Shown here: in pieces, positions 16,013 to 32,074 of the stretch
Layout of the letters: every line of letters starts with the position of its first letter
Numbering within the stretch: position 1 is the stretch's first letter
Assembly: GCA_020344415.1 (NCBI GenBank)
Contig: CP070825.1
Location: 4,221,299-4,285,298 of the forward strand
Direction of reading: 5' to 3'
DNA from: Candidatus Aminicenantes bacterium
GTDB lineage: Bacteria > Acidobacteriota > Aminicenantia > Aminicenantales > Aminicenantaceae
Length of the DNA stretch: 64,000 bases
The notes under the pieces: generated by a model
Told to the model about the DNA's origin: nothing
Seen by the model: only the letters and a program-made list of their open reading frames with translations
Databases searched by the model: none
Made by a program: the position numbers and the translations under genes

Positions 16013-17647
16013 ATGTGCCACAAAAAGATAATCGTCGCAGTAATATTGCTTGTCTTGTTCTTGTTTGTCACACAAGCCTTTTCGAATGAAATTCATCAGG
16101 CAGCAATGAAAGGAGACCTCGCCGGAGTAAAGAAGATACTGGCAAAAAAACCGGATTCAGTGAACTCTAAGGACGAAGATGGAAAAACGCCTTTGCACTT
16201 TGCGGTTCAAAGCGGCAACAAAGAAGTCGCCGAATTCCTCTTCGCTCAAGGTGCAGATATCAATGCCAAGGACGCCAAAGGGAATACTCCATTACATAGT
16301 GCATTGGCCCACAAACGTGCTGATATCGCCCGGTTTTTGCTGTCAAAAGGTGCTGACGTGAAGATTAAGGCTGCGGACGGCACGCCTGTAATTGTTATTG
16401 CATTAATGAGAGGTTTAAAGGAATTGGTCGTGCCGATATTGGATTATGGGCAAGATGTAAATGAAAAATTTGAGGGTGGTTTAAGAATTATCCACATGGC
16501 TTCTCTTCTGGGTGATAAAGAAATTGTTGAGATTTTGCTTGATAGGGGAGCGGATATCAATGTCAAATCAGACGAAAATATTACACCATTGTATGCTGCG
16601 ATTTTCTTGGGTAATACAGGCATGGCTGACTTGCTCCTTTCCAGAGGAGCCGCAAAAGACTATGTAGAGACTCAAACAGGGCGGACTTACCTCCATCTTG
16701 CAGTAATCAAAGGATATGGAGACATGATGGAACTTTTTAGAGCAAAGGGATTGGATGTCAATGCTCGAGATAACAGCGGAAAAACTCCACTCCAGTATGC
16801 GGCTAAATACGGACACAAGAAGATAGCGGATTTACTTATCAAACATGGTGCTCGAGCAAAGGATTTGGAAGAAAACTACGGCATGTCTCCCTTTTTAAAA
16901 AAGAAGCTTAATTCTGGAGATGCTGTTGTCTGGTACCTAGGAACCAGCGGTTGGGCCGTAAAAACAAAGAATAAATTGCTGATATTCGATTACCATATAT
17001 TCGGCAGAAAACCGGATGAACCCTTTCTTTCAAACGGACATATCATTCCGGAAGAGATGCTAGGGCAGAAAATTTATGTCTTTGTTACTCATGGACATAA
17101 CGACCATTTTAATCCAGTAATTTTTGAATGGAAAAAATCTGTCGGTGATATTGTCTACATCCTTGGCTTTAAGCCCAAAAAAGCACCTGAGTATATTTAT
17201 ATGAACCCCAGGGAAAAGAAAATGATCGATGGCATGGTGATTTCAACCATAGAATCAAACGATGCCGGTGTGGGATTTCTTGTGAATGTGGATGGCCTTG
17301 TCCTTTTCCATGCAGGTGATCATGCATGTAAGCAGCAAGATATGAAGGGACCATATTCTGGAGAGATAGATTTTCTAGCAGAAAATGGAAATAAACCTGA
17401 TATTGCTTTTCTTCCGATAACTGGGTGCGGTTTCAGAGATCCGGCTGCTGTCAGAAAAGGTGTTTATTATACACTAGAGAAGCTACAGCCCAAAGTCATG
17501 TTTCCGATGCATGCCGCTGGGTTTGAGTACCTTTACAAAGACTTTGTCAAGGAAGCTTCCAAGGATAAATTCAAAGCCAAAACAAAATTTATCTGCTCCG
17601 GAAACAAGGGAGACCGGTTCATTTACTCAAAAGGCAAGATCAAGTAA
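16013..17647 (+). CDS. Exported ankyrin-repeat protein fused to a metallo-beta-lactamase-fold (UlaG/Lactamase_B_3-like) domain
   Basis: Signal peptide (IIVAVILLVLFLFVTQAFS). About 7 ANK repeats (GKTPLHFAV..G..EV.EFL...GADINAKD, repeated). VFVTHGHNDHF is the HxHxDH motif. RBS AAGGAGG. Confidence 0.85.
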   Translation: MCHKKIIVAVILLVLFLFVTQAFSNEIHQAAMKGDLAGVKKILAKKPDSVNSKDEDGKTPLHFAVQSGNKEVAEFLFAQGADINAKDAKGNTPLHSALAHKRADIARFLLSKGADVKIKAADGTPVIVIALMRGLKELVVPILDYGQDVNEKFEGGLRIIHMASLLGDKEIVEILLDRGADINVKSDENITPLYAAIFLGNTGMADLLLSRGAAKDYVETQTGRTYLHLAVIKGYGDMMELFRAKGLDVNARDNSGKTPLQYAAKYGHKKIADLLIKHGARAKDLEENYGMSPFLKKKLNSGDAVVWYLGTSGWAVKTKNKLLIFDYHIFGRKPDEPFLSNGHIIPEEMLGQKIYVFVTHGHNDHFNPVIFEWKKSVGDIVYILGFKPKKAPEYIYMNPREKKMIDGMVISTIESNDAGVGFLVNVDGLVLFHAGDHACKQQDMKGPYSGEIDFLAENGNKPDIAFLPITGCGFRDPAAVRKGVYYTLEKLQPKVMFPMHAAGFEYLYKDFVKEASKDKFKAKTKFICSGNKGDRFIYSKGKIK

Positions 17648-18445: not shown

Positions 18446-18566
18446 GGTCATCCTTTCTGGCAATTTTTTTCATCTTTCTTCATCATCTTAAGATTAATCC
18501 AACACACAATAATACCTCAATTTGTCTCTTTCAGTAAATGAAATCACTAGAAGATAATATTTTTAG

Positions 18567-18916
18567 CTCCAAATCGGATTCGTTCTGGCATTTCCAGAGG
18601 ACTTTATCAGGAAGCTGGAGAGGGCGAGAGACATGGAGCCAGGCTTCAAGTATATCCATGTGCATGCCCCTTGCTCTCCAGGGAGGAAATCCCTAAAGAT
18701 AAGACTATCGAAGTAGCACGCCTGGCTGTGAAGACAGGCTTCTGGATTCTGTATGAAATGGATCATGGCACATTGAGAGTCACATATCGTCCAAAGGAGA
18801 GAAAATCGATTAAGGATTATCTTCAGATTCAGGGTCGATTTACCGGATTACGCAAAAAGCATATCGAAACCCCTCAGGATTGGGTGGATGAGAAATGCAA
18901 AGAGCTCGGCTTGTGA
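18567..18916 (+). pseudogene. 5'-truncated, frameshifted remnant of a pyruvate/2-oxoacid:ferredoxin oxidoreductase beta subunit (PorB-like C-terminus)
   Basis: Frame A (18567-18683) reads LQIGFVLAFPEDFIRKLERARDMEPGFKYIHVHAPCSPG. The shifted frame (from about 18686) reads EEIPKDKTIEVARLAVKTGFWILYEMDHGTLRVTYRP...YLQIQGRF. Together they match the conserved C-terminal ~110 aa of PorB. The TPP-binding N-terminal part is absent, a stop (TAG 18564) precedes it, and there are no porA/D/G genes nearby. Confidence 0.6.
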
Positions 18917-18993
18917 GCAAAGAATTCCTTTCTCGTTGACACCCCTCTTTTTAAGTATTATTCTAAGGCAAAAAATTAAAAGGACTGTTTAGG

Positions 18994-20133
18994 ATGAAGT
19001 GTCCCAAATGCAATTCAGACAATCCAGATGGTTCCATTTTTTGCGGTAAGTGTGGTGCCAGGCTGGGCGAAGTGGGATTAAAGAAGACTGAACTGGATAC
19101 TCCTGCTCTCTGGGTGGATCTAGTCCAGTTAGAAGAGAATATCGCTTTATTATCCGCGTGCTTTAGGAAGGCAGTTATCAACTGGCGACCTCATATGAAA
19201 GGCATAAGATCACCTGCAATCGCGCACAAACTCATTGCAGCAGGCGCAATAGGGATCACTTGTGCCAAATTAGGCGAAGCAGAAGTCATGGTCGCAGCAG
19301 GAATCGAAGATATACTCATAGCAAACCAGGTTGTGGGAACTCGAAAGTATGCCCGCGTTGCTGAACTCAAGCGACATGCGGATGTGAAAATTGCCGTGGA
19401 TAGTGAGGCAACTCTATCTGACCTTGGCAAAGCAGCTCTGTCGAAAGGAGTTGAGATCGGTATTGTGGTCGAATTGGATACAGGGATGGGCCGGGCAGGC
19501 ATCCAGCCAGGAAAGCCAGCGCAAGAGCTTTCTCTCCTTGTCCATGATACCCCTGGCCTTCACTATCTAGGGCTTATGACATGGGAAGGTCATGCAGTGT
19601 GGATCGATAATCCAGACTCGAAACGCAAGGAAATCGAGAAGTCTATCAAAGAACTGAGAGATAGCGCTGAGCTCTGTCGTCAAGCTGGCCTGCCTGTGAG
19701 CATAGTCAGTTGTGGCGGGAGTGGAACATACACCATCACTTCTCAGCTTGCTGGTATTACTGAGATACAGGCAGGCGGTGCGATTTTTTGTGATGTCACT
19801 TATCAGAAATGGGGTGTAAAAACAAAACCCGCTTTGTTTGTGCGGAGCACAGTAACAAGCCGGCCAACATCCGATCGCATCATCTTTGATGCGGGTTTTA
19901 AGACAATGCCGGCATGGTTCAATCCTCCAAGACCTATCGGTATATCCAACATCAAGAGCATCGTGATGTCTGCAGAGCATGGAGTTTTAACTCTTGAAAA
20001 ACCTAACGATAGTGTTAAAGTAGACGATATCTTCGATTTTATCCCTGGCTATGGAGACATGACAGTCTTCCTCCACGATTATCTCTACGGAATTCGTGAG
20101 AATATTGTGGAGGAGATTTGGGGAATAGGATGA
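18994..20133 (+). CDS. Zinc-ribbon fused to a fold-type-III PLP enzyme of the D-serine dehydratase / D-threonine aldolase (DSD1, alanine-racemase-N) family
   Basis: N-terminal MKCPKCNSDNPDGSIFCGKCGARL (CxxC-x11-CxxC). Then TPALWVDLVQLEENI...WRPHMKGIRSPAIAHKLIAAGAIGITCAKLGEAEVM, which resembles the PLP-lysine region of DSD1-type enzymes. Confidence 0.75.
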   Translation: MKCPKCNSDNPDGSIFCGKCGARLGEVGLKKTELDTPALWVDLVQLEENIALLSACFRKAVINWRPHMKGIRSPAIAHKLIAAGAIGITCAKLGEAEVMVAAGIEDILIANQVVGTRKYARVAELKRHADVKIAVDSEATLSDLGKAALSKGVEIGIVVELDTGMGRAGIQPGKPAQELSLLVHDTPGLHYLGLMTWEGHAVWIDNPDSKRKEIEKSIKELRDSAELCRQAGLPVSIVSCGGSGTYTITSQLAGITEIQAGGAIFCDVTYQKWGVKTKPALFVRSTVTSRPTSDRIIFDAGFKTMPAWFNPPRPIGISNIKSIVMSAEHGVLTLEKPNDSVKVDDIFDFIPGYGDMTVFLHDYLYGIRENIVEEIWGIG

Positions 20134-20227
20134 ATGTCAGATATTTGAATCCCTATTCTTCATGTATCAAAAATATCAAATAACAGTGTGCAGCTCCTAA
20201 TGCAGTATTTATTTTGATGGAGTCGAT

Positions 20228-21358
20228 CTATCCGAGTATCTCCTTGTAAACCCGCATGAAGTTTTCTCCCATGATTTTCTTGATATCTGGCGTCGAGTAG
20301 CCGCGTTGGGTAAGCCTTTCTGCTATGATATACATCTTCTCCGGGACATCGATTTCTTCAATAAATGGCGGCCAGCGAAGGTCGACTCCCGGCTTGAAGT
20401 GAAATTGATCGTGAAAATCGAAGAAAGCTTTCTCTGTAGGGAAGGAAATCCGCCAACCACCAATACTTGAGTCAGAGCCGATTCCAACGTGGTCAATTCC
20501 GACGAGTTTGATGACATGTTCAATATGATTGATATAGTCATCGAGTGTAGACCGCGGCTTCTTGCTGATGAAGAAGTTTACCGTCGCAACGCCCATGACT
20601 CCGCCTTTTGCAGCCAGCTTCTTGATTTGATCATCCCACTTGCCTCTGGGATTGTCACACAGAGCGCGGCAAACAGTATGAGAAAAGATAGGGGTTTTTT
20701 TTGAGACTTCGATCGCATCAAGGGTTGTCTTCACCCCGCAGTGAGAAAGATCCACGAGTATGCCCAGCTCGTTCATCCTGTGGACGACCTTTACACCGAA
20801 GTCGCTCAAGCCGGAATCCTTCCGCTCAGTGCATCCTGCTCCGAGGGCATTCAAAGAGTTGTAGGTCAGTTGAATTTGCCGGATTCCAAGGTTATAGAAG
20901 AAATCGACATTCTTTATGTCGCGCGCAAGATGGGTAGCATTTTGAAAACCGAGCATGAGAGCTATTTTCCCTGTTTTCTTTGCTTCAAGGATGTCGCGAG
21001 TCGTCCTTACCCTGATGAGTACCTCTTCAAAACGATCGAAGATTCCGTGATACATGGCCAGGTCTTTGACAGCCTGTTCGTAACCAAAGGTAGGGTCCCC
21101 TTGGGCGCCAAGGGTTGTCTCGATCATGGTGAGACCTGAGCGTTTGATCTCGTCCTCTCCTTCTTTTCCTAGCCTCAGGCCGCCCAGTGCATCGATAAAG
21201 ATCCAATCCTTATACTTAGCATAAGCTTCTCTTGGAGTTTGGCCGTTGTTTCCATTTTTTATAGAGGCCATTGCAGATCGGACGTTGCCGCCTGGGAGCC
21301 CGAAAGTCAAGATGCTCGCGAAAGCACTCTTCACGAAATTACGCCGTGAAATACTCAT
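20228..21358 (-). CDS. M19 (renal/membrane dipeptidase) family protein with twin-arginine signal; first metal-site residues appear substituted
   Basis: MSISRRNFVKSAF is a Tat motif. VDLSHCG, IFSHT and IGSDS are M19 motifs. The paralogue 25238..26260 has IDVHSDV and FEGVE where this protein has IDALGG and FQNAT. RBS AGGAG. Confidence 0.85.
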   Translation of the reverse strand: MSISRRNFVKSAFASILTFGLPGGNVRSAMASIKNGNNGQTPREAYAKYKDWIFIDALGGLRLGKEGEDEIKRSGLTMIETTLGAQGDPTFGYEQAVKDLAMYHGIFDRFEEVLIRVRTTRDILEAKKTGKIALMLGFQNATHLARDIKNVDFFYNLGIRQIQLTYNSLNALGAGCTERKDSGLSDFGVKVVHRMNELGILVDLSHCGVKTTLDAIEVSKKTPIFSHTVCRALCDNPRGKWDDQIKKLAAKGGVMGVATVNFFISKKPRSTLDDYINHIEHVIKLVGIDHVGIGSDSSIGGWRISFPTEKAFFDFHDQFHFKPGVDLRWPPFIEEIDVPEKMYIIAERLTQRGYSTPDIKKIMGENFMRVYKEILG

Positions 21359-21473
21359 CTCTTATCTCCTTTCTTTTCGCCCGCACGCATGTTAGCGCGC
21401 GATCAGCCAAAATATATCCAAATCTGTCAAAAGTACAAATTTTAAATGGAGATATCCTGGTCTTTAATAAAGA

Positions 21474-22577
21474 TCATTTTACTTCAGGATTAAAGAGAAA
21501 ATAGTCATAAAGAGCTCTCGAGATTTGAGCAATCACCTGCTCACGCTTTTCATTTTCCACTTTCGATTCCTTAATATAAATGGCGGCGATAATATTACCG
21601 GCATTGTCAGGAAGAGAAATGATTCCAGCATCGTTTAAAGTCCCCCCGATAGTACCTGTCTTATGGTATACAACGGTCCCTTCAGGCAAGATGCCTCTGA
21701 TTCTACCCAATCCGGTTTCACAGCGTTTCATGATATCGAGCATCAGAGCAGAGCTTTCCTCAGTCAGGATTTCTCTGTTCCAGATCTTCTTGAGCAATAG
21801 GGCCATACCTTCAGGAGTGGTCGTGTCTTTGGGATCCGCGTTAAAGGCTTCACCAGCCTTTTTCTGCTCCTCAGGTGGAATCTTTTTGAGCAATTCCATG
21901 AGTTCTTCGATGGTTATTCTTGCATCGTTAGGTATCTCTTTAATGCCCAAATATTCATTGATGATACCGAGGACGGTCCGGTCTACTCTTATGCCTTCAA
22001 TGCCGATATCCCTCATATACTGTGTGACCGCCGCGGTTCCTCCGGCCGTCCGTATGCATAGATCAGTCGCGCTGTTATCGCTGATGATGAGCATGAGTTT
22101 CATGAGATTCAAAACCGAGAGTTCAACACCTGGATCGTCGAAAAGATTTGTGAGTGTTCCACTTCCAAGACGACGGTCTCCGGCTTCAACGGGAATCATA
22201 TCGTCAAGCTTGAGTTTTCCTTGATCAACCAGGCTGAGCAGCTTTACGGCTATAGGAACCTTAAAGGTGCTCGCCATTGGAAATCCGACAGATTTGTTCA
22301 AGTAAACCTCTCGTCCTGTTTCTAAATGAATTGCGCCAACACCCACAACGCCTTGGGCGCCTTTTGCTAGGCGGGCGATTTCCTTTTCCAGCCGTACCAA
22401 TCCAGGATCGTCTCCGACGTGAGAGGCATCCTGAGCAAAGAGTGTCAAGCCCCCAAAAGCAAGAAGAATAAAAACACAACAGCCTAGAAACGAACTCAAC
22501 AGTACTCTTCCCGGTTGCCAGAGTTGAAAGATACCCTTTGCCGCTTTCCTGCTTTTCCAAGAGAAAGAATAATCCAT
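21474..22577 (-). CDS. Class-A beta-lactamase-fold serine hydrolase, membrane-anchored/exported
   Basis: STFK (SxxK), SDN (IISDNSATD), KTG (HKTGTIGG). N-terminal hydrophobic segment. RBS AAGGAGG. Confidence 0.8.
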   Translation of the reverse strand: MDYSFSWKSRKAAKGIFQLWQPGRVLLSSFLGCCVFILLAFGGLTLFAQDASHVGDDPGLVRLEKEIARLAKGAQGVVGVGAIHLETGREVYLNKSVGFPMASTFKVPIAVKLLSLVDQGKLKLDDMIPVEAGDRRLGSGTLTNLFDDPGVELSVLNLMKLMLIISDNSATDLCIRTAGGTAAVTQYMRDIGIEGIRVDRTVLGIINEYLGIKEIPNDARITIEELMELLKKIPPEEQKKAGEAFNADPKDTTTPEGMALLLKKIWNREILTEESSALMLDIMKRCETGLGRIRGILPEGTVVYHKTGTIGGTLNDAGIISLPDNAGNIIAAIYIKESKVENEKREQVIAQISRALYDYFLFNPEVK

Positions 22578-22614
22578 TATATACCTCCTTCACAGATTTT
22601 AAGCATCAGAAAAA

Positions 22615-23706
22615 TTATTTCTTAAGAATCTTATATAATCCAAGCGTCATTAGAGGCACAAAATAGATAAAGAAAACTCCCCAGCTCATCAATCCATATC
22701 CTTTGGCAACCAGATTGATTATTCCAAAAGACGATAGACATAAGCTTATAAGAAGCATGAGTACACCTATGACTGGCCTCATCCAGCGTGGAAAGACTTT
22801 CCCTCTAGCCTGAAAAGCAGATTGTATTCTCTCATTGACAGAATGGATAAAGCCTGTTCCTGTCTCAATCAGTGTTCCAACCAACATGACAAGAAAAATA
22901 ACCAGTAGGAACGGAACCCCTGCTTCTTGAATAACGAAAACTGCTGGTATTTCTTCAGTTACTACTGCAGGATAGTAACCAAGGATAGCAATGTAGAAAA
23001 AAAAGCCGGGCAGAAGACCTATGAGTGCAGCGATAGCGCCTGCAGAGATAGCCTCCTTTCTTGTTTCAATATTTCTAATACAAAAAAGAACGGCTGGGAA
23101 GACACTCATATTATAGAGACCGTATTTTAAGCCTCCGATCGCCCATTTAGGGAGTATGATGCCACTGGTCAGGTTTTTCTGGATCAGGGGACCAAACTTA
23201 ATGATGGCAATAATGAGAAAAAGAGCATAGACAACATAAATAAAAATGGACCAGCCAGAAAGGAATTTTTCTATGAGGCCGCTACCTTTGAAAGTCAAAA
23301 ACCCAACTGAGGCCAGCATGATTCCTACACCAAATAGATAAGGGAATCCAAAAAAATCACGCAGTAAAACACCTGCTGCAGAGCCAATGACAGCCAATAC
23401 TACGATCAGAAGAACAATAAAAAATACCTCAAAGATAAGCCAAAAACGACCAAGAAGATTCAATAGAAGAGATCGGTAATCATAGAGCTTGAATTTACGA
23501 GAAAACTCGAATGTCGCAGCCAGTATGAGTGACCATAAAACCAAGGTGATGAGAAACATCCCCAATATTCCACCTAAAGGTCCGTATTTCATGAAATACT
23601 CGACAAGCTCACGACCGGTTCCATAGCCGCCACCTATAAGAACCCCCTGGAATATAAGACCAGGTACAAAGTACCTCCTGAAGAATGAAGCTTTTCCGTT
23701 AGTCAT
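22615..23706 (-). CDS. YkvI-family polytopic membrane protein (putative amino-acid/small-solute transporter)
   Basis: About 11 TM helices. The N-terminal FQGVLIGGGYGTGRELVEYF motif is characteristic of the YkvI family. Confidence 0.75.
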   Translation of the reverse strand: MTNGKASFFRRYFVPGLIFQGVLIGGGYGTGRELVEYFMKYGPLGGILGMFLITLVLWSLILAATFEFSRKFKLYDYRSLLLNLLGRFWLIFEVFFIVLLIVVLAVIGSAAGVLLRDFFGFPYLFGVGIMLASVGFLTFKGSGLIEKFLSGWSIFIYVVYALFLIIAIIKFGPLIQKNLTSGIILPKWAIGGLKYGLYNMSVFPAVLFCIRNIETRKEAISAGAIAALIGLLPGFFFYIAILGYYPAVVTEEIPAVFVIQEAGVPFLLVIFLVMLVGTLIETGTGFIHSVNERIQSAFQARGKVFPRWMRPVIGVLMLLISLCLSSFGIINLVAKGYGLMSWGVFFIYFVPLMTLGLYKILKK

Positions 23707-23771
23707 TTTTATCTACACCTAATCCTTAGAGTCCTAATTTACAATCATGGTGAATGTTAATTCGTGATTGT

Positions 23772-25124
23772 TTATTTTTTCTTTTCTTCAAGTTCTCTTT
23801 TTACCCTGCGAAGCCGAAGTTCGTCAGCAATCAGGGAAGGCATGGCGCACAGATAACAATCGTTTGGAAGCGCAGCGGGTTCGAAAGCATCCACGCCGTG
23901 TTTGAGGCGAATGTCAGCGATCTTTTTAACCATTTCCACAAACCATTCTGCCTGTGGAGCGCGAAATCCATCGTATTTTGTGCCTTTCACCGGACTCCAA
24001 ACAAGAGGGATGGATCCGATGCCGCGTTCCGAGCACCACTCGATTCCCTCAAGTAGACTCTCCTCAGGCTCGATGAATCCTGTGACAAAGTGAGTGCTCA
24101 CCCTTCCAGGCCCGTAGACCTCAGCTGCCACCTCCAAAGCCCTCAGCCAGTGGTCTCTGCCCTGAACCTTATCTTTCCCCGGGCAGTACTTCTTAAACAG
24201 AGTAGGATCCCACACCTCAAGGTTATAGGCGACAGAATAGGCTCCTTTTTTCTTGTGTTCTTCGATGCTTTTGAGATCCTTATCCTCTGGAGCGGTACGG
24301 ATCACGTTAACCGGTATATCATCCCTTTTGAGAGCCTCTTGCTGAGCATGGATGATGTCCAGGATCATTTTGTCTTCCCTGTCTATTTCCTCTCCAGTTT
24401 TCTTTTTGTGCTTGCTCAAGTACCCGCCTGTCAGCAGAATGTGTTTTAAACATCCTTCATCGAACGCTGCCTTGGTCGTCTTGAGAATCTGGTCGAAGCT
24501 CCGTTTGGTAACCTGAAGATCGTCTTTTGTCCAGCGCATATTCGGGACAATATTGCAGAATTGACAGCCATCATCGGTTGTCCAATACATGCAGAAGGGA
24601 GCGTAATTCAAGACGAGACAGTCCTGCCCCCGTTTGGGAGCGATGCGCCTCATGATGATCCCTGGAGATGCTTCCATGCTGTAGTATTTTGGCCGGGGAA
24701 TATGCCGGCATTCTATAACGAATTTCCCGTCCCGCTTGAGAACCATAGCCCCGTCTTCGACCGTACACATCCATCGGGAATCACTATTCTCCCTGACCTG
24801 AACCACACTATCCATCGGAAGCAGCAATTCTTCGGGAAGATAGTAACGGTGCTCACTGATGTTCCAGTCGAAAAGCCAACGAGACTGTTCCCTGTAGACA
24901 TCGCAGATACCTTCCAGTGCAGAATCATCAAACCGCAGGCCATCGGCCAGGAGGCTGGCTTTCACCCATATCTCCTTCTCCAATCCTTCTGGAGTAGGAT
25001 CGAGTGGAGGCTTTATCTGGGGAGCCTTTAGGTTTTTAACATAGTAGGTAGCCTTGTGCCATTCCTCATATTTTTTATTGATATCAGTAAAGAGCCTGTT
25101 CGTTTCCACATTCATAGGAGACAT
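23772..25124 (-). CDS. Radical-SAM-like TIM-barrel protein with non-canonical Cys spacing (C-x8-C-x2-C) and a ~170-aa N-terminal domain of unknown function
   Basis: FCMYWTTDDGCQFCN (aromatic residue before the last Cys, as in CxxxCx-Phi-C), ILLTGG (GGE-like), and HFVTGFIEPEESLLEGIEWCSERGIGSIPLVWSPVKGT (BioB/HydE-like segment). RBS AGGAGG 6 nt upstream. Confidence 0.55.
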   Translation of the reverse strand: MSPMNVETNRLFTDINKKYEEWHKATYYVKNLKAPQIKPPLDPTPEGLEKEIWVKASLLADGLRFDDSALEGICDVYREQSRWLFDWNISEHRYYLPEELLLPMDSVVQVRENSDSRWMCTVEDGAMVLKRDGKFVIECRHIPRPKYYSMEASPGIIMRRIAPKRGQDCLVLNYAPFCMYWTTDDGCQFCNIVPNMRWTKDDLQVTKRSFDQILKTTKAAFDEGCLKHILLTGGYLSKHKKKTGEEIDREDKMILDIIHAQQEALKRDDIPVNVIRTAPEDKDLKSIEEHKKKGAYSVAYNLEVWDPTLFKKYCPGKDKVQGRDHWLRALEVAAEVYGPGRVSTHFVTGFIEPEESLLEGIEWCSERGIGSIPLVWSPVKGTKYDGFRAPQAEWFVEMVKKIADIRLKHGVDAFEPAALPNDCYLCAMPSLIADELRLRRVKRELEEKKK

Positions 25125-25130
25125 GGTTCT

Positions 25131-25241
25131 TTACCTCCTTGAGTTTAATATTAAATCCATTAAATAACTACATATGTCTTTATCATTAGGACAAGCATCT
25201 TTACAATACTTGCATTGATAGACCATATTTGTTGGCTTCAT
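25131..25241 (-). CDS. Unannotated 36-aa Cys-rich ORF: MKPTNMVYQCKYCKDACPNDKDICSYLMDLILNSRR
   Basis: Hand-translated on the minus strand. The ATG overlaps the TGA of the upstream dipeptidase gene (ATGA). The last codons AGG AGG double as the RBS of the downstream radical-SAM-like gene. It is below the 60-aa cutoff of the ORF track. Confidence 0.35.
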   Translation of the reverse strand: MKPTNMVYQCKYCKDACPNDKDICSYLMDLILNSRR

Positions 25242-26260
25242 TTCCAAACACTTTTGAATACACGGAGGAAATTCTTGGCCGAAATGAGCTCAATCTCCTC
25301 ATTGCCGTAGCCCCTCTTCTTGAGCCCTTCGATTACTGCCGGGATATCCTCGTCCTTTGTGAGATTGTTCGATGGAGAAGTCACAAAGGCATCCTTCGGT
25401 AATCGCATATGTTCCTCTTCGGATAAATATTTCATGAGATATTCATAAAAATCAAAGCCGAATCCCACATTCTCCACTCCGGCCACTTTTACCACATAAT
25501 CTAAATGGTCTAATATATGGTCAACAGTTCGGCTTCCTCCGGATTTCGGCGCAAAACAAAAATGCAACACTCCGATAACCCCTCCTCTTTCCGCTACTGC
25601 TTTAATCTGGTCATCGGTGAGATTCCTGGGATGATCACATAGGGAGCGGCAGTTTGAATGGGTGGCTATCACTGGAGATTTCACATGTTCCATAACATCC
25701 CAGAAGCCTTCATCATTCAAATGCGTCACATCTACCAATATCCCCAATTCCTCTGCTTCTTGTAGAAGTTCAATCCCAAATTCAGAAAGGCCTCCAGGCT
25801 TTCCCATTTTTCCTGGAGAGAAAAGAGATCCGTCCCCGGCAAAGTTTCTTCGGCTGTGGGTCAAAGCCATGATTCTCAAGCCCAATTTGTAAAATACAAA
25901 GAGAAGATTTTTATCATTCAGGAGAGGCTCTACGCCTTCAAATGCAAGAATGAGCCCAATCTTGCCGCTCGCCAGAGATTTTTCAATATCTTCGAAATTG
26001 CGACACACGGATATGCTCGGAGATTCATTTTCCTCTGCGAGCAAGGCACTGACCATATCCAGTGCTCTTCTCAGAGCCATATCAGGAACGAAGGCTTCGT
26101 CGATATATATCGATGCGACTCGCAGATTTAGCCCTGCTTTTCTCATCGCAGGAACCCAGTCTTCTTCAAAGACTTTTATCCTGCCCAATGCCCGTTTCCT
26201 AATGATATCCATCAATACATCAGAATGGACATCAATAAGCGAAAGGTTTTCTTTTTTCAC
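25238..26260 (-). CDS. M19 dipeptidase (renal-dipeptidase family), cytoplasmic, canonical metal ligands
   Basis: IDVHSDV (HxD), LAFEGVE, VDVTHLN, IATHSN, GFGFDF. GTG start with GGGAG upstream. Confidence 0.85.
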   Translation of the reverse strand: MKKENLSLIDVHSDVLMDIIRKRALGRIKVFEEDWVPAMRKAGLNLRVASIYIDEAFVPDMALRRALDMVSALLAEENESPSISVCRNFEDIEKSLASGKIGLILAFEGVEPLLNDKNLLFVFYKLGLRIMALTHSRRNFAGDGSLFSPGKMGKPGGLSEFGIELLQEAEELGILVDVTHLNDEGFWDVMEHVKSPVIATHSNCRSLCDHPRNLTDDQIKAVAERGGVIGVLHFCFAPKSGGSRTVDHILDHLDYVVKVAGVENVGFGFDFYEYLMKYLSEEEHMRLPKDAFVTSPSNNLTKDEDIPAVIEGLKKRGYGNEEIELISAKNFLRVFKSVWK

Positions 26261-26416
26261 TTACGTTCACTCCCAATTTTTTTGTCCAATGTTATCAAAT
26301 TAGATTCTTGTATGGCAATATCATTCTGTTCCTACAGTATAGAGCTCAGGTGAATTTGAACTGATCAATATGGGACGGTTTAGTTTTGAAAAAAGAGAAC
26401 CGTCTCCAGTCTCGAA

Positions 26417-27841
26417 TTACTTCTCAAAGATGTACTTCATGGCATCGAAATCGAGTGTCCAGGAGGAATACTGGCGCAGAAATCGATGCGAAATCAGTCC
26501 ATCCTGAATATATCCTGAACCCCAATAGGATTCTGGCGGTCTGGCTCCATACGTTCCCTTGACGTTGGATTGGATCAGGCTGCCCATACTGATTGTCTTG
26601 ATCGGGAAAATCCCGGAAGCCCACTTTCCTCCTCCGCCTCCGACACTTTCCTTATCAATCTTTGTCTCAGGCACCGGAATACCGACATAGTTCAGGGTTT
26701 GAATAGGCGCTGTGAAACAGGCCTCGCCTTCAAGACCAGAGTCCACAAAGAAGGTCAGACCGTCTTTGTCGTTCAAACCTCCTCTGGTCATCATCATATG
26801 GGTGGCGTCCAGCACAAAAGGCACTTCAGCGGCAATCCTGCCTTTGAGCTCTTCCTGAAGTTTACGAGCGTTTTCCTTTATCCTTTCTTGCAGGATCATC
26901 CGGCCGTTCTTATAATCAATGGTCGAAAGAAACTGACGCATGGCAGCTGTGCCGATGGCACCTCCTATCGTGTATTTCCCTTCTTCAAAGGCTTTGGAGA
27001 ATCGCTTGGTCGGAAGAATAATGATTGGCACCTGCTTCAGCGTAACATCACCCAACTTGACGCTGTCTACTTTTCCGAATCCGATCTCGCTTGTCTTTCC
27101 TCCTCCAAATGAGCCCGTGGCTTTTGCGCTCCATTCGATACCCAGTGCGGATGCGATCTCGTTATCCAAAATGAACGTATCTGCACCGGTGTCGAAGAAT
27201 ACAATTACCGGTAGTCCATTGAATTCGATCTCTAGTACTGGCAGGGAATCAGTCATCAGAAACTGTATTATCGAGACCTTTTCCTCGCTGTGCCATTCCT
27301 TTTGATAGGGATTTTCTTCAAATCTCTTTATGGCTTCCACGTTGGGAAGCTTGACCCCTGGCGGAAACTCCAATTCTTTAATTTTGTTAAATCGGTCCAT
27401 CTGGTAGTACGTAAACATCAACCCAACATTGGCCATGACCTGGCCGGACATGTCCCCGGCCTTCGCTTCGACAAGCCGTTTGTAAAGCTTTTCGGCTTCG
27501 CTGTAGTTTCCAATAAGATACTCAAGCTTCGCCGCTACAGATAATGCCTCATCTGAGGGTTTTGAATCCTGGACTAGAAGCGCAATCACATCTCTTGCTT
27601 TCCAGAATTCACCGGACTGGTAGAGTAGGTTTCCGTACTTGAACCGGATTTCTTTATCGCCAGGATTTTTCTTGAACTCGGGCTCGGTCTTTTTAATTTC
27701 AGCCAGAATATCTGCGCGAGTCTTTTCCCCTTTAGGCGGCTTGGCTTCCTGGTTTTCAGACATAATATTGCCTTTTGTCATTGTGAAAGAAAAGCTCATT
27801 GAGAATAAAAGGATAAAGCATGCCCTTAAAGTTGAGCCCAA
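26417..27841 (-). CDS. Secreted protease with N-terminal TPR and two retropepsin-like aspartic protease lobes
   Basis: Signal-like N-terminus (TTG start). VFFDTGADTFILD (D-T-G) and FFVDSGLEGE (D-S-G) lie about 140 aa apart. TPR-like region at aa 50-140. Confidence 0.7.
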   Translation of the reverse strand: MGSTLRACFILLFSMSFSFTMTKGNIMSENQEAKPPKGEKTRADILAEIKKTEPEFKKNPGDKEIRFKYGNLLYQSGEFWKARDVIALLVQDSKPSDEALSVAAKLEYLIGNYSEAEKLYKRLVEAKAGDMSGQVMANVGLMFTYYQMDRFNKIKELEFPPGVKLPNVEAIKRFEENPYQKEWHSEEKVSIIQFLMTDSLPVLEIEFNGLPVIVFFDTGADTFILDNEIASALGIEWSAKATGSFGGGKTSEIGFGKVDSVKLGDVTLKQVPIIILPTKRFSKAFEEGKYTIGGAIGTAAMRQFLSTIDYKNGRMILQERIKENARKLQEELKGRIAAEVPFVLDATHMMMTRGGLNDKDGLTFFVDSGLEGEACFTAPIQTLNYVGIPVPETKIDKESVGGGGGKWASGIFPIKTISMGSLIQSNVKGTYGARPPESYWGSGYIQDGLISHRFLRQYSSWTLDFDAMKYIFEK

Positions 27842-27874
27842 ATTGAGTTTTGATAACGTTTGTTCTTACCTCCC

Positions 27875-28963
27875 TTATTTATATCCATGTTTGCCCCGTG
27901 CATATGCGAGGCTGAAGTCTATCTTTTCACCAGTAGGAGAAAAATCTCGATCCTTCCAATCAGGCAATTTCGCCTGAGCCTTCTTAAGAATATCGCGACC
28001 TCCTTCTTCATTACTAACGGCCTCCACCATCTTCCTATATGTTATATGCGCGGTATAGTTGGAGAGCAGTCTAAAGGTGAGGTAAGCTTCCAAGAAACTC
28101 TCAGTAGTGATACTCACTGTCTTGTTGTCAACTTCTTTTGCCCCTGGAAAGTCCATTGCCATCGTAGCATGAACTGGCAGCGTATATTTGAACAGGTTCT
28201 TGAAAGGTTCATTTAGTTCCTGAGGTTTCCAGACCGGAATATCCTTCAGATTGCGAAGCGCCCGTTCCGCAGCAGCTTCTATTTCTGCAGAAACCTGCTC
28301 TTGTGGTCTTGGTACAGCTTTAAAAAAGTCCACTGCCTTTTTCACCACTACATATTCAGTTCTTGGAGAAAACTCCTTAATTTCCTGCTCCAGAACATCA
28401 TCTCCTGCGACTAGAATAAGCGGAATGTCGAACCGCGCCGCTGAAGCTGCAACAAGCATACTCTCGTTCATATCAAAACCAGCCATGATCCATTTGGTAT
28501 GGATATAATAGGTATGAGCAATTTGACCTTTTGCACCTGCGCGGCTGTGCATGCCCATGCACACCACTGCATCGAAGGTCTCATCCAGTGTGTCGATATA
28601 GGCATCATACACCTCATCACGGATGTCAAAGCGGGCTCCCTCGGGCAATCGGTCAACTATGTAATCGGGTTCAGGATTTCCACTCCCATGAGCATCGGTC
28701 AAGACAACCTCACGGGCTCCAGACTTGAGCAATCCTCTAATGGCTGCGTTCACATCCTCAGTGAGTGATTCTCGCGCAGCTTGATAGGTGGGGGAATAGG
28801 AGAGAACATCATTAAAATTGGTCACGCCTGAGGCACCGTCCATGTCGATAACTATAAGGACCTTGGGTCCTGCTTGCTTACACCCGGGCACAACATAGAA
28901 TATCAGCAGAATAGCTGTCCCTATTCCAATCGCTGTAAGCCAGTAAAATTTTTTTGGACGCAT
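27875..28963 (-). CDS. M55 family D-aminopeptidase (DppA-like), membrane-anchored/exported
   Basis: VLIVIDMDGASGV resembles the DppA D-M-E-G-x-x-G start. VVLTDAHGSG, CMGMHSRAG. Hydrophobic N-terminus. RBS AAGGAGG. Confidence 0.8.
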   Translation of the reverse strand: MRPKKFYWLTAIGIGTAILLIFYVVPGCKQAGPKVLIVIDMDGASGVTNFNDVLSYSPTYQAARESLTEDVNAAIRGLLKSGAREVVLTDAHGSGNPEPDYIVDRLPEGARFDIRDEVYDAYIDTLDETFDAVVCMGMHSRAGAKGQIAHTYYIHTKWIMAGFDMNESMLVAASAARFDIPLILVAGDDVLEQEIKEFSPRTEYVVVKKAVDFFKAVPRPQEQVSAEIEAAAERALRNLKDIPVWKPQELNEPFKNLFKYTLPVHATMAMDFPGAKEVDNKTVSITTESFLEAYLTFRLLSNYTAHITYRKMVEAVSNEEGGRDILKKAQAKLPDWKDRDFSPTGEKIDFSLAYARGKHGYK

Positions 28964-29086
28964 TGTCTTCCTCCTTACATAAAATATTCCCCAACTCTCA
29001 GCCCTAGCATTGTAATTCGCTATGACTATTTTTCGAAGCCTTTATAATCAAAAATTGATAGCCTGTATAATCAAATTGAAAAAACT

Positions 29087-30556
29087 TTACGCTTTTTTGA
29101 GCTTTCCCCAAAATGTCGAAACAACTTTATCCGACGGTTTGGGTGTAAACGCACTGACCAGGATATAAACAACAACGGAGCTCAACACAGAGAGGAATGA
29201 AGGATGTGTACCCCATACTTTAATTTCTGGGACTATAGTGTTCGCCAGCGCATATATAATCATTCCCCAGATTATCGAGGCGATGGCTCCCCATTTATTT
29301 CCTCTTTTCCAAAACATCCCCAACAGTATTGGTCCGAATGTTGCAGTTACCAACCCGCCGATCGCAAAAAAGATTATCCATTGTATCAATGTGGGCTGAA
29401 ACAATGCGAGGGCAATCGCTATTGTAAGGCAAGCTCCCATTGTTAACCTTGATGCCAGCTTCACCTCTTTCCCTGATACATCCGGTTTGAGCTCTTTGAG
29501 AAGGTTTCTTGCAATGCTGGAGGTTATGATTATAGCCATTGCTGCCACAGTGGTCTGGATTCCGGCTACAATGCCGGCAAGCACAATTCCTCCCAGAGCT
29601 TTTGGCATCACATTCATTGCTAACCAGGGGCTGATTTCATCTGGCACAGAAAGCTCTGGAATTATTGCGCGGCCTAGGACTCCTGACATGCAGAGAAGGA
29701 TTGTCCATAGAAAAACTAAAATAGCTCCCATCCATATTCCTCTTTTGAGTGCTCTTGTATTTTTGTATGTCAAAGCGCCGAGCATGGCGTGGGGCATCCC
29801 AATGATAAAAAATCCTGTCATGCACGCGAGCGAGAAGGCAAACATTGGCGGAAATTCGCCCAGTTTGGTAGGCGAGAGAAAGCTCATATCCAGGGCTGTG
29901 ATGGCCTCGGTCGATTTTTGAAATCCACCTGCATACACTACAGTTCCTATGAAAAGTATTATGCAACCTATGGTTATGACAACGCCCTGCAGGAGAATCG
30001 CTATAGATGTCCCTCGCATGCCGCCTAATACACAGTAGACCAGTACGACCGAAGACCCGAGGGCGAGAGAGGCAAAATATCCCATCCCCGTCATCTGGGC
30101 AATAACCCTTGCAGCTCCCACAAACTGGGTTGCCATATAAGGCAGTAAGAATATTGTCACCAAAACGGCTAGAATCACGACGATGGCCTTACTCTCATAC
30201 CTAGCTTTAAAAACGTCCAGGTATGTTATGGCGTTTACTCTCCGGGCGACAATTCCCACCATTATGCCTATCGGGGCCAGCAGCAAAAGATTCATGAATA
30301 TCTGAAAATTATTGATAAGCACCCAGGAATAACCGTAGGCATAAGTCATTCCCGGACCTGCGATAAATGTTCCCGCGCTTGCTAGCCCCCCTGCAATTAT
30401 CAGGGCGACAACTATTCCTCCCAATCCCCTCCCTGCAGCATAAAATTCTTTCTCGTATTTTGCGATGGGGACTCTTTCTACAATCCGGTATGACCATATC
30501 CCTATTGCTAATAATATGGCTGTATATATGAAAAAAGATAATATTGCTGGGTTCAT
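29087..30556 (-). CDS. Sodium:solute symporter family (SSS; PutP/PanF-like) transporter
   Basis: 489 aa with about 13 TM helices. N-terminal YAAGRGLGG and a GGMRG segment are typical of the SSS family. The ATG overlaps the stop of the upstream small ORF (ATGA). Confidence 0.85.
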   Translation of the reverse strand: MNPAILSFFIYTAILLAIGIWSYRIVERVPIAKYEKEFYAAGRGLGGIVVALIIAGGLASAGTFIAGPGMTYAYGYSWVLINNFQIFMNLLLLAPIGIMVGIVARRVNAITYLDVFKARYESKAIVVILAVLVTIFLLPYMATQFVGAARVIAQMTGMGYFASLALGSSVVLVYCVLGGMRGTSIAILLQGVVITIGCIILFIGTVVYAGGFQKSTEAITALDMSFLSPTKLGEFPPMFAFSLACMTGFFIIGMPHAMLGALTYKNTRALKRGIWMGAILVFLWTILLCMSGVLGRAIIPELSVPDEISPWLAMNVMPKALGGIVLAGIVAGIQTTVAAMAIIITSSIARNLLKELKPDVSGKEVKLASRLTMGACLTIAIALALFQPTLIQWIIFFAIGGLVTATFGPILLGMFWKRGNKWGAIASIIWGMIIYALANTIVPEIKVWGTHPSFLSVLSSVVVYILVSAFTPKPSDKVVSTFWGKLKKA

Positions 30557-30822
30557 TTTTCCTCACTTTCTTCTTCATCATTATCTGTCAGGGGAATGTC
30601 GGGTATAAGTTTTTCAGCCACGAATATTAACGCGATCACGAATACGATGGGGATTAGAAGGTTTCCGATGGCCACCCAGCGGGGTAATCCGAAGATGTAT
30701 GGTTTTATCCCTAAGACATAAGACAATACCAATATGACTATAAGATAGACAGCAAAAAAGATCCAAGCTATGGCAAGCCCCCTCTTTGCTACTTTTATTC
30801 TCGGGTCTTGAATGAATTTCAT
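30553..30822 (-). CDS. Small 2-TM membrane protein translationally coupled to the SSS transporter (YhdT/DUF997-like arrangement), acidic tail
   Basis: The ATG at 30822 is preceded by AAGGAGGTG. Two hydrophobic helices. C-terminal DNDEEESEEK. 4-nt overlap with the SSS gene, as for yhdT-panF in E. coli. Confidence 0.55.
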   Translation of the reverse strand: MKFIQDPRIKVAKRGLAIAWIFFAVYLIVILVLSYVLGIKPYIFGLPRWVAIGNLLIPIVFVIALIFVAEKLIPDIPLTDNDEEESEEK

Positions 30823-30946
30823 TTTCACACCTCCTTCAAAGTCTTTGAGATTTATTGATGTATACGAGGATTCAAGCAACTAAAAAATATAATATTTAAA
30901 GATATTATTCTAATTTTCAGATTGAATTGAAACAAAAAAAATATGA

Positions 30947-32074
30947 TTATCCATAAAGCAGGCTGGGTGAACTGAGATAATTATCGATTTCTGCAGCGTC
31001 TGCATCTATGGATAATCCGAAAGCTGGGTTGTTCATTGTGGCCTGAATTTTCTCAACTAGACTTTTGGTGATCGGCCCGGGACGGCCATCTCCTATCACT
31101 TTACCTATTACCGAAATAACAGGCAGAACTCCTGCACCCGTGCCAGTCATAAAGCACTCTCTGTTCTCGCCCATGAGGTCGATCGGCATCATGTCTGCAT
31201 CATCATCGACAGTATAACCTTCCTCCTTAAGTAATTTTATAGTGAGCGCTCTTGTGATGCCAATTAGACAGTACTGAGCCCGCGGTGTTCGGGCAACTAC
31301 CTTTGATGTATCGCTCTCCCAATCTTTGTTGCGCTCTATTGAAAATATATTATCTACTGTGGCTTCAGCGATAAATCCTCTTTCAGTCAGCATAATTGAT
31401 TCCATATCCGTTTCAGCCGCACCTTCCAATAGTCCGAGTACATTATTAATATAGTTATTGGATTTTATATTGGGGTTGAGAATTTGGGCGTTTGGACGAC
31501 GGATATTTCTCGATACCCCCAGGGAAATTCCTTGTTCATAATAGGATCGGGGATATAGATTAATGCTCGAAGCTAAAGCGAAAAGAGTAGCACCGATGCA
31601 TTTTGCTGGATTTATTCCCAAATCACCCATACCACGACTGACCACAAGGCGGATATAGCCCTGTTCTCTCAATGAAGGATCAACGGCCTGACATGTACGC
31701 AGTAGCAATTCAGTCAATTGTTTGGGGCTGTATGGAATACTGATGTGGAGCATCTCGGCTGATTTGAAAAATCGCTCTATGTGTTCTTGCCATAAAAAGA
31801 TTTGATTGTTTTTAATAAGGATTCCTTCAAAACACCCATCCCCATATAATGCAAGATGATCGAGAACAGATAAAGAAGCCTCTTTAAGCGAGAAAATTCC
31901 ATGCCTTCGTTCTAGACCTTCATCCGTATTTGCTCGTTCAGCTTGTTTTTGATCATCGAGACATGCGGGCGTAGCATTTTCAACGACAGGCATGCTGAGG
32001 AAGACTCGCGCATGAATGCCTACTTCTTTGAGCGCTTCATACGCCTTTCTTAATCTTTCATCACTTATGTTCAT
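30947..32074 (-). CDS. Class IV (fold-type IV) aminotransferase, D-amino-acid / branched-chain aminotransferase family, with ~65-aa N-terminal extension
   Basis: LYGDGCFEGI, VSRGMGDLGINP, TERGFIAEATVDNIF and FMTGTGAGVLPV are all class IV signatures. Confidence 0.85.
   Translation of the reverse strand: MNISDERLRKAYEALKEVGIHARVFLSMPVVENATPACLDDQKQAERANTDEGLERRHGIFSLKEASLSVLDHLALYGDGCFEGILIKNNQIFLWQEHIERFFKSAEMLHISIPYSPKQLTELLLRTCQAVDPSLREQGYIRLVVSRGMGDLGINPAKCIGATLFALASSINLYPRSYYEQGISLGVSRNIRRPNAQILNPNIKSNNYINNVLGLLEGAAETDMESIMLTERGFIAEATVDNIFSIERNKDWESDTSKVVARTPRAQYCLIGITRALTIKLLKEEGYTVDDDADMMPIDLMGENRECFMTGTGAGVLPVISVIGKVIGDGRPGPITKSLVEKIQATMNNPAFGLSIDADAAEIDNYLSSPSLLYG

Follow-up and report, generated by a model that had tools for sequence, protein, structure and literature searches.

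The window analyzed here, a stretch of 64,000 nucleotides from contig CP070825.1 of a Candidatus Aminicenantes bacterium, contains a 36-codon open reading frame (mini-ORF) between an M19 dipeptidase gene and a gene for a 450-amino acid radical SAM enzyme. The mini-ORF is very probably a chance by-product in an ordinary AT-rich operon spacer, and the downstream gene encodes a stand-alone enzyme of the 'variant_rSAM' family. A chance open frame is the most likely explanation because related genomes do not retain the frame. The original prediction was that the mini-ORF encodes a hidden precursor or partner peptide of the enzyme, which, if true, would have been a lead to a new class of peptide-modifying systems.

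The mini-ORF is located on the minus strand (25131..25241), and its translation, read from 25241 to 25131, is MKPTNMVYQCKYCKDACPNDKDICSYLMDLILNSRR*. Its four cysteines form the pattern C-x2-C-x3-C-P-x6-C. As originally described, the ATG overlaps the TGA of the 340-amino acid M19 dipeptidase gene (25238..26260, minus strand; Pfam PF01244, 277 bits) in the string ggaaATGAag, and the final sense codons are AGG AGG, followed by TAA (25139..25131). The six bases AGAACC separate this stop codon from the ATG of the 450-amino acid gene at 25124. These last two sense codons are at the same time the AGGAGG Shine-Dalgarno sequence of the radical SAM gene (25134..25139, minus strand), located 9 nt before its ATG. 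The spacer between the dipeptidase and radical SAM genes (25125..25237, minus strand) is 113 nt in length, AT-rich (GC 0.30), and most likely noncoding; the open frame is present in the sequence, and we judge it to be a chance ORF and not a gene.

ATGA overlaps and ORF ends that contain a Shine-Dalgarno sequence can come purely from the signals of the flanking genes themselves. The terminal codons of the dipeptidase gene, AAA TGA (Lys-stop), form the ATGA that is the source of the mini-ORF start codon. The ATG is supplied by the terminal lysine codon and stop codon (AA-ATG-A), and the end of the mini-ORF is a Shine-Dalgarno sequence followed by TAA. The ~100 nt between these forced ends happen to have no in-frame stop, with the four cysteines arising from TGT or TGC codons in AT-rich DNA, and the sole functional element of the 113-nt spacer is most likely the AGGAGG ribosome-binding site of the downstream gene. 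Equivalents of AGGAGG precede the orthologs at four homologous loci (L049, L051, L057, and L060), and at L060 an identical TCAAGGAGGTAA string occurs upstream of the radical SAM gene with no ORF running into it.

The relatives compared share at most 85–89% protein identity with the window; one identical copy (L050) was also included. This copy is the only other instance of the mini-ORF that we found. Over 4,024 nt it matches the window at 100% identity; it is hence from the same organism, and we rejected it as independent support for the mini-ORF. Locus L049 is syntenic with the window, retaining the order M19, radical SAM, YkvI, β-lactamase-like, and M19, with the M19, radical SAM, and YkvI proteins being 84%, 85%, and 79% identical, respectively, to those of the window. 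Its M19 gene likewise ends in TGG AAA TGA, and the frame of the resulting ATG reads ATG AGA TAG. In the 112-nt spacer of L049, every one of the six frames contains a stop and there are 1-nt indels, and the spacer DNA is 57% identical to the window spacer, as compared to 75–80% for the flanking genes. At L051, whose radical SAM protein is also 85% identical, just 15 nt separate the M19 stop codon from the radical SAM ATG, and at L060 an M19-type gene is followed by a 56-nt gap without an ORF and then the radical SAM gene. The preservation of frame and residues in syntenic relatives expected of a small gene is therefore lacking, the frame being disrupted in L049 and the gap being only 15 nt in L051. 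Loss or disruption of the ORF with nonconserved cysteines at homologous loci, which the original prediction had itself named as evidence against a gene, is what we observed at L049, L051, and L060.

Nothing above noise was found by tblastn of the 36-amino acid peptide against three sets of fetched loci (22, 26, and 12). Among ~55 homologous loci, there was no recurrent cysteine-rich small ORF within 450 nt of family members and no peptide related to the mini-ORF product, and the exact peptide was absent from a collection of 15 billion proteins. The NCBIfam scan of the peptide produced no match, and its Pfam Fer4 score was below threshold (13.6 bits versus a cut-off of 21.1; E = 0.061). The 4Fe-4S ferredoxin motif is C-x2-C-x2-C-x3-C-P; the C-x2-C-x3-C-P of the peptide weakly resembles part of this motif, but its spacing differs from the ferredoxin pattern.

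We evaluated how often such a frame would occur by chance by shuffling the interior of the mini-ORF 20,000 times, with dinucleotides preserved and the forced ends left unchanged. No stop interrupted the frame in 3.7% of these sequences, and 0.18% had both an open frame and at least four cysteines. With 29 gaps of 80 nt or more in the window, and 3.7% per gap, about one open gap is expected per window. The mini-ORF gap is the only one of the 29 to be filled end to end by an ATG-initiated ORF, and it also has the highest cysteine count. The joint probability of an open frame and the cysteines, 0.0018 per gap, corresponds to roughly 0.05 per window and counts against a chance ORF; the mini-ORF thus exceeds chance expectation only marginally. 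The composition and codon make-up of the mini-ORF are intergenic-like and not coding-like for this genome. Its GC content of 0.288 is matched or undercut by only 0.8% of genic 36-codon windows and falls within the range of the other spacers in the same operon (0.28–0.33). In codon log-odds (coding against intergenic), the mini-ORF scores −0.19 per codon where genes score 0.21 ± 0.12; values this low occur in only 0.2% of genic windows.

Three other explanations of the spacer were considered. The mini-ORF could be translated to carry ribosomes from the ATGA to the TAA located six nt before the radical SAM ATG, with the act of translation mattering and the peptide not, and translation could also melt a small hairpin that pairs the Shine-Dalgarno sequence with codons 2–4. 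The geometry suits termination-reinitiation at both ends, and the tight coupling of the M19 and radical SAM genes at L051, through a 15-nt gap alone, makes their coupling plausible in this lineage. We did find an 8-bp hairpin that pairs AGGAGGUA with UGUCUCCU (minimum free energy −8 kcal/mol). However, this hairpin does not exceed those of shuffled sequences in stability (z = −0.45), and L049 and L051 lack it; we rejected it as a means of sequestering the Shine-Dalgarno sequence. Furthermore, L049 has a spacer of similar length without any ORF to act as a relay, the radical SAM gene has its own strong AGGAGG, and the mini-ORF ATG has no Shine-Dalgarno sequence of its own beyond the dipeptidase coding sequence. 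Both the ribosome relay and the melting of the hairpin thus appear quite unlikely. We regard it as very unlikely that the spacer instead contains an element that regulates the radical SAM gene, such as an internal promoter, attenuator, or riboswitch, with the ORF being incidental. The spacer does have the AT richness of promoter regions, and in other lineages the orthologs (L002, L007, and L059) have their own promoter-like TTGACA-17-TAAGAT and a ~110-nt leader. Within the window spacer, however, the minus strand has no σ70-like site, which led us to reject an internal promoter. A riboswitch or structured RNA was likewise rejected, as the spacer has no Rfam match and its folding is not unusual (z = −1.24 in the window and +0.86 in L049). 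The spacer sequence is also not conserved in L049 and is dispensable in L051.

In the remaining explanation, which in our judgment is highly improbable, the mini-ORF is a very young lineage-specific gene, and the radical SAM enzyme would either modify its cysteine-rich product as a RiPP-type substrate or work with it as a small partner that binds metal or Fe-S. In its favor are the four cysteines within 15 residues of open frame, with the joint shuffle probability given above, the position of the ORF immediately before a radical SAM gene, and the faint Fer4-like match. If this were true, a radical SAM scaffold resembling BioB and LipA, with neither SPASM nor RRE, would underlie a RiPP-like or partner system. 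RiPP radical SAM maturases of the sactipeptide and ranthipeptide type carry an auxiliary-cluster domain (SPASM or twitch) at the C-terminus and, in most cases, an RRE (PqqD-like). None of these three was found in the 450-amino acid protein, for which Pfam and NCBIfam scans gave the radical SAM core only. The ORF is conserved in no syntenic or nonsyntenic relative, its composition is intergenic-like, and no RiPP protease or exporter is adjacent. Orthologs that are 70–86% identical occur across metagenome-assembled genomes (MAGs) of several labeled phyla, among metabolic genes and without the peptide, and the function of the enzyme therefore cannot depend on the mini-ORF peptide. The suggested RiPP precursor is not supported, there being no conserved ORF, no SPASM, twitch, or RRE, and neighbors that are catabolic enzymes and transporters; nor is a metal-binding partner, the ORF being absent or disrupted at the three loci above and without a peptide homolog at the ~55 loci. 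A chance frame in a noncoding spacer is the explanation that we favor.

The protein encoded downstream (23772..25124, minus strand) belongs to NCBIfam NF045502, 'variant_rSAM', within the 'biotin synthase-related' lineage of COG2516. It scores 318.2 bits against a cut-off of 125, with residues 49–406 aligned to positions 2–355 of the 357-position profile. In the canonical radical SAM motif, C-x3-C-x2-C, the three cysteines ligate the SAM-binding [4Fe-4S] cluster and are located in the loop after barrel strand β1. The 450-amino acid protein has the noncanonical triad C178-x8-C187-x2-C190 (codons 24593–24591, 24566–24564, and 24557–24555), along with an LLTGG motif and an HFVTGF...PLVWSPVKGT segment, all of which had been noted previously. 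Among 126 family representatives clustered at 50% identity, the triad cysteines are present in 123–124, with x8 spacing in 115 and x9 spacing in four. C178, C187, and C190 are invariant in alignments down to 21–37% identity, and T232-G233-G234, E303, and P315-G316-K317 are also conserved in the family. Conservation is partial for C314 and for the C423-x2-C426 pair, the latter being the sole cysteines near the C-terminus and found in fewer than half of the representatives. The protein narrowly misses the gathering threshold of Pfam PF04055 (28.9 versus 29.5 bits), with the alignment beginning at profile position 10, because the variant loop displaces the first cysteine; most orthologs carry a precomputed PF04055 match.

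As modeled by AlphaFold2 (pLDDT 91.5, pTM 0.92), the 450-amino acid protein is a genuine radical SAM enzyme with the expected barrel. The cysteine triad is located directly after the strand predicted at residues 169–175. Foldseek returned 54 matches with E ≤ 0.001, and the best 50 of these 54 are all radical SAM enzymes. Among the PDB matches listed, LipA ranks highest (5exi, E = 4e-8, probability 1.00), followed by HydE, LIAS, MiaB, and BioB. By sequence, the only PDB match to the enzyme was spurious (E = 0.7). The family-wide triad, the NF045502 score, and this confident model with its radical SAM barrel matches together bear out the proposal of an atypical radical SAM enzyme. The same proposal described a ~170-amino acid N-terminal domain preceding the motifs. 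A family-specific, β-rich N-terminal domain is indeed predicted (about residues 45–170), but it is not an add-on of unknown function, since from residue 49 onward it lies inside the NF045502 model and aligns in distant relatives.

An exhaustive search of representatives identified 1,189 clusters at E ≤ 0.001, and a profile search from the A2 alignment added almost no further relatives. When clustered at 50% identity, the tight ortholog group (>65% identity) reduces to a single full-length cluster and a few fragments, and several of its members have been named 'biotin synthase-related radical SAM superfamily protein' by JGI. These orthologs, at the 70–86% identity noted above, come from MAGs labeled Aminicenantes, Acidobacteriota, Gemmatimonadales, Desulfobacterota-type, and Alphaproteobacteria, and as a group they are unusually well conserved. 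No functional study of the ortholog group was found in the literature on MSMEG_0568 radical SAM, COG2516, or the oxidoreductase/cupin context.

The M19 and radical SAM genes belong to a run of 11 co-directional genes (20228..32074, minus strand), as delineated by Pfam scans and the ORF map. In transcription order, the first part of the run encodes a class IV aminotransferase, a DUF997 protein, an SSF symporter, an M55 D-aminopeptidase, and a TPR/aspartyl protease, and the rest encodes the M19 dipeptidase, the radical SAM enzyme, a YkvI-type protein, a class-A β-lactamase-like protein, and a second M19 dipeptidase. The YkvI-type membrane protein (22615..23706, minus strand; 363 amino acids) is a putative transporter, with homologs named 'uncharacterized membrane protein YkvI' by JGI and no Pfam, NCBIfam, or PDB sequence match of its own. 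We considered it as a novel partner of the enzyme and rejected this, as YkvI-type membrane proteins are common and this one has 1,558 relatives. In L049, L051, and L053 its gene likewise comes after the radical SAM gene, and it is the conserved downstream neighbor in the sub-lineage of the window.

In this sub-lineage, the neighbors of the radical SAM gene are peptidases and the YkvI transporter. Elsewhere, subunits of a 2-oxoacid:ferredoxin oxidoreductase are encoded directly upstream and co-directionally at nine loci (L027, L028, L031–L034, L052, L057, and L058). A Cupin_2 protein is encoded directly downstream of the ortholog in at least nine loci, as counted from Pfam-annotated loci and plus-strand clusters (ORF clustering of GC-rich loci gave some wrong-strand ORFs). 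Further neighbors of the orthologs include a class IV aminotransferase, an ELFV dehydrogenase, PanB-like and HMGL-like proteins, a CoA-transferase, and TRAP and branched-chain ABC transporters. This gene context points to small-molecule catabolism. In the model, C178, C187, and C190 would bind a [4Fe-4S] cluster from an extended loop that follows the first barrel strand, and the cluster would reductively cleave S-adenosylmethionine to a 5'-deoxyadenosyl radical that abstracts hydrogen from a small-molecule substrate. Going by gene neighborhood only, this substrate is most likely an amino acid or 2-oxo acid from peptide or (D-)amino-acid catabolism, and in many genomes the electron donor is likely to be reduced ferredoxin from the adjacent 2-oxoacid:ferredoxin oxidoreductase. 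The assignment of substrate and reaction is a loose one because neighborhoods differ by lineage (oxidoreductase and cupin versus peptidases). For the study of uncharacterized radical SAM chemistry in the anaerobic breakdown of amino acids, the ortholog group is a reasonable, albeit not urgent, target.

The resemblance of the locus to sactipeptide and ranthipeptide (SCIFF-type) loci is limited to a superficial layout in one genome, namely a cysteine-rich ORF upstream of a radical SAM gene. Unlike those systems, there is no leader/core architecture, protease, or exporter, the peptide is not conserved, and the neighbors are metabolic. With respect to structure, the closest known enzymes are LipA, HydE, and BioB (5exi, followed by 3cix and 8vcw, among others; TM-score to target 0.5–0.6). 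However, these are only 13–20% identical to the 450-amino acid protein, use C-x3-C-x2-C, and lack its N-terminal β-rich domain, and the cysteine sets of the LipA and BioB auxiliary clusters are not evident in it. The LipS2 lipoyl synthase (NF053743) matches residues 263–393 partially, at 31.8 bits against a cut-off of 270.

The nearest named subfamily is TIGR04043 (MSMEG_0568, the Nit1C radical SAM), whose members P0072, P0080, and P0081 have the same variant cysteine spacing. Nit1C radical SAM genes have been described as closest to COG2516 (PMC1199592). The 450-amino acid protein falls outside this subfamily, scoring 105 bits against a cut-off of 303.7 at 24–27% identity, and the Nit1C context (nitrilase, GNAT, AIR-synthase-like) has no counterpart among its neighbors in the window. 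With distant members of NF045502/COG2516, on the other hand, it shares the C-x8-C-x2-C, TGG, E303, and PGK motifs, and nothing at the family level sets it apart. The enzyme family is therefore already catalogued but uncharacterized. The pair had been thought undescribed, but for the enzyme this does not hold, as NCBIfam provides a curated model of the family and RadicalSAM.org lists radical SAM clusters with C-x8-C-x2-C, together with a C-x9-C-x2-C sister cluster (PMC9477430). The 450-amino acid protein has the same noncanonical spacing and would fall in the same BioB-like subgroup, to judge by motif and fold only, and the sister cluster fits the four of 126 representatives that have x9 spacing.

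The minus-strand M19 dipeptidase gene (25238–26260; PF01244, 277 bits) ends in TGG AAA TGA, and the 36-codon frame that follows it (the mini-ORF; 25241..25131, minus strand) starts in an A-ATG-A overlap with this end. The mini-ORF reads MKPTNMVYQCKYCKDACPNDKDICSYLMDLILNSRR and then a stop, its 3' end being AGG AGG TAA, after which come AGAACC and the ATG at 25124 of the 450-amino acid ORF (23772–25124, minus strand). The original prediction was correct at this level: the frame, its Cys pattern C-x2-C-x3-C-P-x6-C, and the enzyme segments FCMYWTTDDGCQFCN, LLTGG, and HFVTGF...PLVWSPVKGT are all present. The mini-ORF itself, however, is very probably an open frame that arose by chance in a spacer within the operon.

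The decisive evidence on this point is a comparison across loci. The 450-amino acid protein has many close relatives, and 22 genomic and 26 metagenomic loci were compared, plus 12 obtained by exact-protein look-up. The mini-ORF is present in L050, but this locus is 100% identical to the window across 4,024 nt and is therefore the same organism and uninformative. Locus L049 shows genuine synteny with the window, having the order SSF symporter, TPR/aspartyl protease, M19, radical SAM enzyme, 363-amino acid protein, beta-lactamase-like protein, and M19, with protein identities to the window of 84% (M19), 85% (radical SAM), and 79% (363-amino acid protein). DNA identity between the two is 75–80% in coding sequence and 57% in the 112-nt spacer, which contains 1-nt indels and has stops in six of six frames, the conserved ATGA reading ATG AGA TAG. 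In L051, whose radical SAM protein is 85% identical, just 15 nt (TAGaaaggaggacttgacATG) separate the M19 stop and the radical SAM ATG. In L060, an M19-type gene is followed by a 56-nt gap and the radical SAM gene; the string TCAAGGAGGTAA precedes the radical SAM ATG, as in the window, and no ORF leads into it. With stops and indels in one relative, a 15-nt gap in another, and no ORF in a third, the proposed gene is not conserved. It follows that the three features giving the mini-ORF its coupled appearance belong to the neighboring genes. Its ATG is formed by the dipeptidase Lys and stop codons, and AGGAGG with the following TAA is the ribosome-binding region of the enzyme gene.

We also asked how often such a frame arises by chance. 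The mini-ORF interior was shuffled 20,000 times with dinucleotides preserved, both ends, which are forced by the flanking genes, being held fixed. No in-frame stop arose in 3.7% of the shuffled sequences, and 0.18% combined an uninterrupted frame with four or more Cys. Among the 29 intergenic gaps in the window that are 80 nt or longer, about one is expected to be open from end to end. The mini-ORF gap is the only such one and has the highest Cys count, which makes the mini-ORF mildly unusual (roughly 0.05 per window with Cys counted). Its composition looks like that of a spacer rather than a gene. The GC content is 0.288, as compared with 0.44 ± 0.06 in genic 36-codon windows (0.8% of which are as low), and equals that of other spacers in the same operon (0.28–0.33). 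The coding-versus-intergenic log-odds per codon is -0.19, as compared with 0.21 ± 0.12 for genic windows (0.2% as low).

The original prediction proposed that the peptide could be a RiPP precursor or a small metal-binding partner of the enzyme. The four Cys and the adjacent radical SAM gene are consistent with such a role, but the frame is not kept in relatives and no SPASM, twitch, or RRE domain was detected in the enzyme by Pfam and NCBIfam scans. Searching the compared loci with the peptide by tblastn yielded nothing above noise, and no recurring partner emerged when ORFs of 20–90 amino acids with three or more Cys were sought up to 450 nt from each family gene. The peptide has no entry in a 15-billion-protein collection and matched no NCBIfam model; in Pfam, Fer4 alone was hit, below threshold (13.6 vs. 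21.1 bits). This role is not supported, and we consider it highly improbable. Slightly less improbable, though still a minor possibility, is that the frame acts independently of its sequence, its translation serving only to bring ribosomes that finish the dipeptidase to the start of the enzyme gene; its position would suit such a relay, but nothing in the data requires one. The spacer had no Rfam match, no promoter-like site was found within it on the minus strand, and its folding is unremarkable (z = -1.24 in the window and +0.86 in L049). An 8-bp hairpin pairs the Shine-Dalgarno sequence with codons 2–4 of the enzyme gene in the window, but its stability does not exceed that of shuffled sequence (z = -0.45), and neither L049 nor L051 has it.

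The mini-ORF lies within a run of 11 co-directional genes (20228–32074, minus strand) with a peptide and D-amino acid flavor, which encodes an M55 D-aminopeptidase, two M19 dipeptidases, a class-A beta-lactamase-like protein, a class IV aminotransferase, and an SSF symporter. The wider cluster (18994–32074) is strongly suggestive of D-amino acid and peptide catabolism, including also a TPR-retropepsin-like aspartyl protease, a small DUF997 partner of the symporter, and, adjoining the run, a zinc-ribbon-fused Ala_racemase_N/D-Ser-dehydratase-like gene. The 363-amino acid protein (22615–23706, minus strand) had no sequence match in Pfam, NCBIfam, or the PDB; it belongs to a family of 1,558 matches with the JGI name 'uncharacterized membrane protein YkvI', and is probably a transporter. 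Between the divergent class IV aminotransferase gene and a 318-amino acid ORF without a Pfam match is 1 kb devoid of genes (32075–33101, GC 0.36), presumably the promoter/regulatory region of the minus-strand cluster. Elsewhere in the window (16013–17647, plus strand) is a protein with six ankyrin repeats and a C-terminal metallo-beta-lactamase-fold domain (Lactamase_B_3).

Orthologues of the enzyme at 68–86% identity were surveyed for their neighbors. Subunits of a 2-oxoacid:ferredoxin oxidoreductase are directly upstream and co-directional in L027, L028, L031–L034, L052, L057, and L058, and adjoin divergently in L054, while a Cupin_2 protein (104–121 amino acids) is directly downstream in at least nine loci. 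The order oxidoreductase, radical SAM, Cupin_2 (~110 amino acids) is very often seen (L054, 8001–9798; L055, 8001–9753; L057, 1493–3222; L052, 3424–5771; and others), and forms a conserved, uncharacterized module. Variable neighbors include class IV aminotransferase, Glu/Leu/Phe/Val-type dehydrogenase, PanB-like and HMGL-like proteins, family III CoA-transferase, and TRAP or branched-chain ABC transporters. In the sub-lineage of the window (with L049, L051, L053, and additionally L026, L029, and L060), peptidase genes surround the enzyme gene, and the YkvI-type protein follows it. The window retains a truncated, frameshifted remnant of the oxidoreductase beta subunit (18585–18913, plus strand) inside a 530-nt 'gap' (18464–18993), as two tblastn segments in different frames (69% and 57% identical to residues 158–267 of the L052 subunit). 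Along with the intact gene directly upstream of the radical SAM gene in many genomes, this suggests that an ancestral arrangement was disrupted in the window's lineage. The enzyme is probably a stand-alone radical SAM enzyme with a small-molecule substrate from amino acid or 2-oxo acid catabolism, with ferredoxin reduced by the neighboring oxidoreductase a plausible electron donor.

Identity within the orthologue group is 70–86% across MAGs labelled Aminicenantes, Acidobacteriota, Gemmatimonadales, Desulfonema/delta-proteobacteria, and Alphaproteobacteria. In three Aminicenantes-type loci (L002, 5856–5992; L007, 5856–5990; L059, 54–190), the gene is preceded by a conserved promoter-like TTGACA-17-TAAGAT of its own and by a 5' leader of ~110 nt that is conserved in part, for which there was no Rfam match and, among the three sequences, no convincing covariation.

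The assignment of the 450-amino acid protein as an atypical radical SAM enzyme was borne out. AlphaFold2 gave a high-confidence model (pLDDT 91.5, pTM 0.92) that places C178 directly after strand 169–175, the cluster-loop position of radical SAM enzymes; the top Foldseek matches in the PDB are all radical SAM enzymes (M. tuberculosis LipA 5exi, E = 4e-8; HydE; human LIAS; MiaB; and BioB). Among 126 representatives, C178, C187, and C190 are present in 123–124, with a first spacing of x8 in 115, x9 in four, and other values in four; G234, G349, E303, and P315-G316-K317 are near-invariant as well. Because the first Cys is displaced, PF04055 narrowly misses its threshold (28.9 vs. 29.5 bits). NCBIfam NF045502 'variant_rSAM', on the other hand, matches residues 49–406 with 318 bits against a cut-off of 125.

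The variant motif is not new: radical SAM clusters with C-x8-C-x2-C spacing appear in the RadicalSAM.org paper (PMC9477430). An exhaustive search with the protein returned 1,189 clusters (50% identity) at E ≤ 0.001, in which the orthologues of the window protein form one full-length cluster and a few fragments; the next full-length relative is 44% identical. The enzyme is a real, uncharacterized member of an already catalogued variant radical SAM family. TIGR04043 (MSMEG_0568/Nit1C type; 105 vs. 303.7 bits) and LipS2 (31.8 vs. 270 bits) are distant relatives only; a 2005 paper (PMC1199592) connected the related Nit1C radical SAM genes with the 'biotin synthase-related' enzymes of COG2516.
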